Shown: positions 1,858 to 2,134 of the stretch, one piece after another
How positions within the stretch are numbered: position 1 is the first letter of the stretch
How the letters are laid out: every line of letters begins with the position of its first letter
UHGV virus genome: UHGV-0256785
From: a virus
Direction: 5' to 3' (one strand)
Length of the DNA: 26,660 nucleotides
Program-made: the position numbers and the translations under genes
Notes under the pieces: model-generated
What the model saw: the letters and a program-made list of their open reading frames with translations, nothing else
What the model was told of the DNA's origin: nothing
Databases searched by the model: none

Positions 1858-1887
1858 TTGACCAGACACATTGTCCGGGGCTATATT
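1858..1887 (+). promoter_or_regulatory. candidate sigma70 late promoter (pR'-like) directly downstream of Q
   Basis: TTGACC at 1858-1863, 18 bp spacer, TATATT at 1882-1887; small hairpin CGCCAG/CTGGCG at 1895-1912 just downstream. Confidence 0.5.
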
Positions 1888-1949
1888 CCTCACGCGCCAG
1901 CAAAATCTGGCGTCGGGATTAGGAACCCCGGATAGAGACCGCGACAGAT

Positions 1950-1971
1950 ACACGCCGCGAGCGTGTTTTTT
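1950..1971 (+). terminator. intrinsic terminator (tR'-like) about 70 nt downstream of the candidate late promoter
   Basis: Stem ACACGC (1950-1955) / GCGTGT (1961-1966), loop CGCGA, followed by a T6 run. Confidence 0.6.
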
Positions 1972-2134
1972 ATTGTCGTATGCACGCGCACATCTGAATT
2001 ATGGTGGGGCGTATGGGGGAGCTGAAAGGCTCGCCGGTTGGTTTCCCGGTAGTTCCTAACCCTGTACGTCTCACCACCCGATGATTAGGAACCTGACGGT
2101 GGTGATAGTTTAGAAACCACTAGAGGGCGTCATT

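Follow-up and report, generated by a model that had tools for sequence, protein, structure and literature searches.

In the immI region of phages P1 and P7, the C4 antisense RNA pairs around the ribosome binding site and thereby prevents expression of ant, and C4 underlies the heteroimmunity of the two phages (PMC12197685; PMC8198154), while a statement in PMC2190699, citing Hartmann et al. 1995, names the P1 C4 precursor as an RNase P substrate. On a single P1 transcript a constitutive TTGACC promoter is followed by the target sites a1 and b1, a U-run hairpin, C4, the second targets a2 and b2, and the ribosome binding site. A cassette of the same layout, isrK-orf45(STnc1160)-anrP, lies directly after a Q gene in Salmonella Gifsy-1 (antQ-isrK-orf45-anrP), where a fraction of the transcripts reads through the IsrK terminator, the read-through transcript yields the stable processed RNA STnc1160, and the short IsrK RNA binds the region in trans and activates translation of anrP (PMC4825925). 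Hfq binding by IsrK, like its activation of anrP in trans, is known for Gifsy-1 only (PMC4825925). Mutations G28A and G31A relieve the repression of anrP, and C162U/C159U bring back the inactive conformation (Hershko-Shalev et al. 2016, PMC4825925). The authors of that study took the C4 region to be ‘orf45’, an ORF that must be translated for anrP to be expressed, did not find that over-expression of the C4-like STnc1160 relieved the toxicity of IsrK, and themselves drew the comparison with satellite phage P4 (PMC4825925). The CI RNA of P4 with seqA and seqC resembles the locus described here in being a processed small RNA encoded between two of its own targets on one transcript; P4 CI acts via premature transcription termination.

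We analysed a 26,660-nucleotide stretch of the virus genome UHGV-0256785 (the window), in which segment 1858-2134 is very probably the RNA control region of a P1 immI-type C4 antisense cassette (~1846-2714) that resides in a 933W-like lambdoid E. coli prophage. The system is of a known kind, represented by Rfam families and by the P1 and Gifsy-1 literature, and the window holds an ordinary member of it. An earlier note had pointed to two direct copies of GATTAGGAACC on the + strand and to an inverted copy, GTTCCTAA, and all three were found again at their positions in the sequence (Table 1). A search of both strands of the whole window for the 11-mer, allowing at most one mismatch, returned these two sites only, with 0.32 expected and two or more found in 4 of 100 shuffles; the core TTAGGAAC occurs twice and GTTCCTAA once in the window, and the reverse complementarity of the two is exact over 8 nt. 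Among 5000 dinucleotide-preserving shuffles of 1858-2140, 19 contained a direct repeat of at least 11 nt, and only 2 combined such a repeat with an 8-nt reverse-complement copy. The arrangement is thus real and far beyond chance, and it is the target-antisense-target triad (a1, a′ and a2) of a P1-type C4 cassette: the curated GenBank record of P1 lists P1c4/P51b, a1, b1, C4, a2, b2 and the icd start, and the window is colinear with it element by element from the promoter to the ribosome binding site.

Table 1. Positions in the window of the cassette elements and of the 933W-like block downstream, with the basis of each assignment.
Feature	Position	Strand	Sequence or basis
Cassette promoter, P1 P1c4/P51b-like	1858-1887	+	-35 TTGACC 1858-1863, 18-nt spacer, -10 TATATT 1882-1887
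IsrK-like short RNA, equivalent of the a1b1 leader	1894-1971	+	Rfam isrK RF01394; fold
a1 target site	1917-1927	+	Aligns with annotated P1 a1; covaries with a′
b1 target site	1935-1941	+	GAGACCG; same place as P1 b1
Intrinsic terminator of the short RNA	1950-1972	+	Stem-loop 1950-1966, then T run; terminator scan; Rfam isrK 3′ hairpin
ORF matching Gifsy-1 ‘orf45’	2001-2084	+	AUG 2001 inside the C4 5′ end; 27 codons; stop 2082-2084
C4 antisense RNA, predicted mature ends	2003-2078	+	Ends by homology to the 77-nt P1 C4; Rfam match 1997-2081
b′ antisense segment	2039-2045	+	UGGUUUC; 8-nt loop of the second C4 hairpin (fold)
a′ antisense segment (the inverted copy)	2052-2059	+	GUUCCUAA; fold; aligns with P1 a′ CUGUCAA
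a2-presenting hairpin	2071-2105	+	TCACCACC/GGTGGTGA, arms 2071-2078/2098-2105; a2 in loop
a2 target site (second direct copy)	2083-2093, core 2085-2092	+	Same place as annotated P1 a2
b2 target site	2113-2119	+	GAAACCA; exact complement of b′, 7 bp
ORF6N-type anti-repressor gene	2135-2699	+	Pfam ORF6N; PHROG 2379 anti-repressor, E = 3e-90
pR′ homolog	2717-2744		TTTACG...TATCCT; 933W annotation
Terminator of the 933W-like late leader	2775-2796		Hairpin, followed by T run

The cassette promoter has 10 of 12 matches and is the sole promoter-like site within 1400-3400; both its -35 TTGAC and its -10 have aligned counterparts in P1c4, as annotated in P1, and in the corresponding promoter of Stx phage PA4. 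The transcript is predicted to start at G1894, a position fixed by the numbering of Gifsy-1 IsrK, 13 nt past the first base of CTATATT. From there on, hairpin 1 (1894-1913), hairpin 2 (1914-1930), a single-stranded stretch and the terminator follow one another, and the Rfam model isrK (RF01394) matched 1894-1971 on the + strand with 69.1 bits (gathering 50), while c4-a1b1 (RF03163) gave a marginal + strand match at 1881-1934 (47.8 bits versus gathering 46.7). As with IsrK, an RNA of ~77 nt with three hairpins that ends in a terminator is encoded with its promoter just past a Q gene and upstream of an anti-repressor gene. Across 110 homologous units (see below), hairpins 1 and 2 were 92% and 99% paired, respectively, with two-sided changes; the columns of the terminator helix were misaligned in the MAFFT alignment, so the 49% pairing obtained there is uninformative on the terminator. 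The core of a1, UUAGGAAC at 1919-1926, falls within the 9-nt loop of hairpin 2, and its counterpart in the annotated P1 record is TTGACAG (L121 3256-3262).

Beyond the terminator, the Rfam C4 model (RF01695) matched 1997-2081 on the + strand with 65.7 bits (gathering 45). The predicted mature RNA folds with a minimum free energy of -41.8 kcal/mol (z = -4.69) into an outer stem and two hairpins with a 9-nt single-stranded joint that holds a′, and both a′ and b′ are left unpaired. These helices were 94.5-99% paired overall in the 110 units, the outer stem 98.7% with two-sided changes at 10 pairs and the first hairpin 99.1% with such changes at 4. The sequence around the 5′ end of P1 C4, AUUAU directly followed by GGUGGGGCGU, is identical in the window and in P1, and the AUUAUGGUGGGGCGU / AATTATGGTGGGGCGT stretch at this end is shared unchanged with P1. 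ARAGORN found no tRNA or tmRNA in 1858-2134, and a permissive Rfam search of 1700-2400 gave no further credible family.

The second direct copy, a2, begins 5 nt past the predicted 3′ end of C4, at the place of the annotated P1 a2 (3-4 nt past the C4 3′ end). It equals a1 over 11 nt, and its core forms 8 bp with a′. It is presented in the loop of a hairpin that was 94.3% paired in the 110 units, with two-sided changes at 6 of its 8 pairs; the 5′ arm of this hairpin doubles as the 3′ strand of the outer stem of C4, so that only one of the two folds can form at a time. We also considered whether the interleaved stems 2052-2059/2085-2092 and 2071-2078/2098-2105 represent a riboswitch or an H-type pseudoknot, and rejected this candidate since the Rfam matches and the P1 homology explain both stems, the former as pairing of C4 with its target and the latter as the a2 hairpin.

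A second, shorter triad that the earlier note had missed (b1, b′ and b2) runs through the same elements. Pairing of b1 with b′ gives 7 bp, two of them G-U. The end of b2 lies 3 nt upstream of the Shine-Dalgarno sequence GAGGG (2123-2127), with the ATG at 2135. As expected of a C4 system, two unpaired C4 segments, a′ and b′, are complementary to sites (a2 and b2) between C4 and the ribosome binding site of the ORF6N gene, and a duplicate pair of these targets (a1 and b1) is located upstream on the same transcript.

The pairing was assessed comparatively by a pattern scan of viral contigs that was anchored on invariant positions of the C4 scaffold only, which yielded 120 loci and, from these, 110-111 distinct units. 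Pairs were counted on a MAFFT alignment of 110 distinct units, with slid controls and shuffle controls (n = 500). Each of the two a helices comprises 7 pairs, 6 of which showed two-sided changes, and paired cells made up 97.3% for a1:a′ and 99.1% for a′:a2; the slid controls for these helices reached 32-47%, and the observed values were attained in none of the 500 shuffles. An alignment-free comparison of self with non-self complements was used for the b pairing because the variable-length C4 loop aligns poorly. By this measure, a complement of at least 7 nt to the unit's own a′ was present at the upstream site in 100 of the 111 units and at the downstream site in 109 (non-self control 19.5% for either site), and a complement of the same minimal length to the b′ loop at the upstream site in 65 (control 3.8%) and at the downstream site in 96 (control 6.2%). 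Among the units, a′ occurred as 24 different 10-mers and the b′ loop in 47 versions, and both changed together with their own flanking sites. Folding and covariation had been named as a check in the earlier note, and its suggestions that the copies pair as RNA and that the segment is a leader controlling the downstream ORF6N gene are both borne out, the latter in the form of a C4-type leader.

The window carries a rare a-type, found also in L106 and L114, that is one base pair longer than the related GAUUGGAACC type; each of a1, a′ and a2 carries the additional nucleotide, a coordinated 1-nt insertion. PA4 has nearly the same scaffold, flanks and b set as the window, while a different a-type, GAUUGGCGUC, occupies its cassette, with GATTGGCGTC/ACGCCAA at all three a positions. 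These comparative data provide a clean natural case of three-way compensatory evolution among target, antisense and target, the coordinated insertion included. As a tentative extension, for which we see a real chance that falls somewhat short of even, the lambdoid C4 cassettes might form a large set of orthogonal, programmable three-part switches (in this sample, a-types number at least 24 and b-types at least 47), in which IsrK would serve as a dedicated sponge for its own C4 and polylysogens could thus operate several anti-repressor switches with no cross-talk, and the rare a-type of the window would have arisen from the coordinated 1-nt insertion at the three sites. Complete C4 cassettes with differing a/b combinations were also observed in tandem at a spacing of 656 bp, three of them in viral contig L034 (9644-11216) and two in viral contig L099 (4695-5611).

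The regulated gene encodes an anti-repressor, as in other C4 systems, and icd is absent. The ORF6N protein is 56% identical to STM2616/AnrP of Gifsy-1, with the first 27 residues identical. In the window, the gene is split into ORFs of 70 aa and 123 aa by a +1 frameshift in an A8 run (2320-2327), while in a 99.6% identical copy, on the E. coli chromosome 20AR1039, the run is A7 and the CDS of 187 aa is intact; the A8 frameshift reflects either a pseudogene or a homopolymer sequencing error, and the switch may therefore be without functional output in the window. Directly past the A-run, a palindrome with 12-bp arms (TTGCGACTTACTTTAAGTAAGTCACAA, 2328-2354) was noticed inside the anti-repressor CDS, which scores as terminator-like on the minus strand and is also present in the intact homolog.

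By analogy with P1 and Gifsy-1, the C4 cassette would work as follows. The sigma-70 promoter would initiate transcription near G1894, and most transcripts would stop at the intrinsic terminator, producing an IsrK-like RNA of ~78 nt with a1 in a hairpin loop and b1 just downstream. Read-through transcripts would contain C4, which might be excised by RNase P as in P1, whose sequence at the cleavage site is the same. The released C4 is predicted to expose b′ in a hairpin loop and a′ in the single-stranded joint, and these would pair with a2 and b2 just upstream of the ORF6N Shine-Dalgarno sequence, so that translation of ORF6N would be blocked and the anti-repressor kept off. The a1/b1 copy would compete for a′ and b′ in cis as well as in the form of the free short RNA, presumably acting as an anti-antisense decoy that turns anti-repressor synthesis on, as shown for Gifsy-1 IsrK. 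The a and b sequences, whose variation between phages is concerted, would set the specificity of each switch.

C4 of the window folds as in P1, its joint holding a′ and its hairpin loop b′, and the downstream product is an anti-repressor in both. The pairing sequences themselves differ, P1 having TTGACAG as a and GTTAGTG as b, both unlike those of the window. In the window, an ORF6N anti-repressor rather than Ant1/2 of P1 comes directly next, with no icd-like leader ORF in between, and b2 adjoins the Shine-Dalgarno sequence at a distance of 3 nt, whereas b2 of P1 overlaps that of icd. No C1 operator or second promoter is evident in the window, and the host element is a lambdoid prophage rather than a plasmid prophage. 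Points that speak against the C4 reading include the short remaining gap of b2, the lack of icd, the two G-U pairs in b1:b′ and a c4-a1b1 score barely above the threshold.

In Gifsy-1, the promoter (GGGGCTATATT) differs hardly at all from that of the window, and the same holds for hairpin 1, the terminator and the C4 scaffold. The differences lie in the a-type (AUUGGCGU in Gifsy-1 versus UUAGGAAC, the latter with one extra base pair), in b′ (GGUGAU versus UGGUUUC), in the neighbouring Q (Q82-like versus 933W-like, the two being unrelated) and in the length of ‘orf45’ (45 versus 27 codons). When the start of IsrK was set at the A 13 nt past the first base of CTATATT, all published Gifsy-1 positions fitted: G28 and G31 map to a1 (AUUGGCGU), C159 and C162 to a′ (ACGCCAA), with G28/C162 and G31/C159 as the compensatory pairs, and AUG107 of ‘orf45’ is the AUGG at the 5′ end of C4. 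The comparative data indicate that ‘IsrK/orf45’ of Gifsy-1 and ‘a1b1/C4’ of P1 are one device. We did not find this statement in the literature searched, which handles the two as distinct systems and where a search for papers equating IsrK with a1b1 gave only co-annotation in APSE phages. Equating the two is a modest synthesis rather than a discovery, and it could help to reconcile two published mechanisms.

Those mechanisms differ in what they make of C4, and the Gifsy-1 model taken literally is the strongest competitor of the C4 reading. It holds that a1:a′ pairing in cis locks the read-through mRNA, that the short RNA opens it in trans, and that translation of the ORF starting at AUG 2001 is coupled to that of the anti-repressor, with no trans-acting C4 repressor. 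In its favour, Gifsy-1 provides compensatory mutants, native gels and fusions (PMC4825925), the layout of the window is the same, and a1 is potentially more complementary to the C4 region than a2 (duplex energies of -52.6 versus ~-40 kcal/mol, with internal structure ignored). In the window, however, the ORF from 2001 stops 50 nt before the ATG, which makes coupling by overlap impossible, and over the 110 units it measures anywhere between 14 and 45 codons. In 56 units, mostly from one related subfamily, this ORF continues in frame into the gene downstream. An ORF of 27 codons that ends this far upstream and varies so in length argues that the conserved entity is the RNA. Further, the model gives a2 and b2 no role, yet they covary with a′ and b′ and the C4 helices covary strongly; STnc1160 is a stable processed RNA in Salmonella, and P1 genetics has C4 acting in trans. 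We consider the literal model improbable for the window. Given the ‘orf45’ reading and the STnc1160 over-expression result, the repressor role of C4 in lambdoid cassettes is a putative one.

The earlier note had placed the repeated motif in a late leader, as a possible part of a qut-like element; in this reading the promoter at 1858 would be pR′ and the terminator at 1950 tR′. The promoter does begin 4 nt past the stop codon of Q and is followed by a short terminated transcript, as in lambda pR′-tR′. The likeness to pR′-qut-tR′ of lambda and 933W is limited to this position after Q and the short terminated transcript, with no sequence homology, and a search of 1858-2134 gave no homology to pR′/qut of 933W. 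Q of the window (PF06530) is 80% identical to Q of 933W, and the counterpart of the segment annotated in 933W as pR′, qut and terminator was found at 2717-2806 (~84% identical), downstream of the ORF6N gene. The terminator at 1950-1972, called tR′-like in the earlier note, belongs to the IsrK/a1b1 RNA according to Rfam. Homology to 933W stops at ~1845, inside the 3′ end of Q, and resumes at ~2715, which identifies the cassette as an insertion of ~870 bp that separates Q from pR′. In a related O157:H7 prophage, the same junction holds another insert, with a CPBP gene, and the same pR′-like block comes next. Nor does the cassette travel with a cognate Q: in PA4 the same promoter-a1b1-C4-a2b2 cassette is part of the nin region, where ninE and roi flank it and Q lies 2.3 kb downstream, and cassettes also occur after the unrelated Q82-like Q of Gifsy-1 and in P1, which has no Q. 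A late-leader role of 1858-2134 is therefore very unlikely, and the post-Q segment is better annotated as an inserted anti-repressor cassette, the real pR′-qut-tR′ lying ~830 bp further on. Judged from the sequence, 2717-2806 is likely the true Q-dependent late leader of the prophage, and annotation of late-gene control in it should use these positions.

Least credible of all is the notion, also raised in the earlier note, that a dimeric protein regulator recognizes the copies as DNA. A protein might in principle bind such a set of sites, two of them direct and one inverted, that lie within 180 bp. The 8-nt core, however, is non-palindromic, the inverted copy is located where C4, a conserved and covarying RNA, has its unpaired joint, and what is preserved across at least 24 variants is complementarity, not one fixed sequence. 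The unrelated b triad behaves alike, and DNA sites of this kind are contradicted by the compensatory covariation with a loop of a structured RNA as well as by the mutagenesis of Gifsy-1, in which compensatory mutants work at the RNA level (PMC4825925).

Several further observations concern the surroundings of the cassette. The final ~19 codons of a 933W-type Q gene, the part that overlaps pR′ in 933W, are replaced by the insertion, and Q of the window consequently ends with ...DRYVERIM. Past the 2717-2806 block lies a conserved ORF of 65 aa (2924-3121, PHROG 331) with a winged-helix-like product. In Gifsy-1 (L124 33406-33480, minus strand), the sRNA gene isrJ follows immediately after anrP, where the short terminated transcript of the late promoter would be expected if the Gifsy-1 cassette is also placed between Q and pR′. 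The only tRNA genes that ARAGORN identified are tRNA-Thr(UGU) at 4487-4562 and tRNA-Gly(UCC) at 4566-4640, with the DNA methylase gene (3272-4318) on one side and the lysis genes on the other, at the position that is occupied by ileZ-argN-argO in 933W-like phages.
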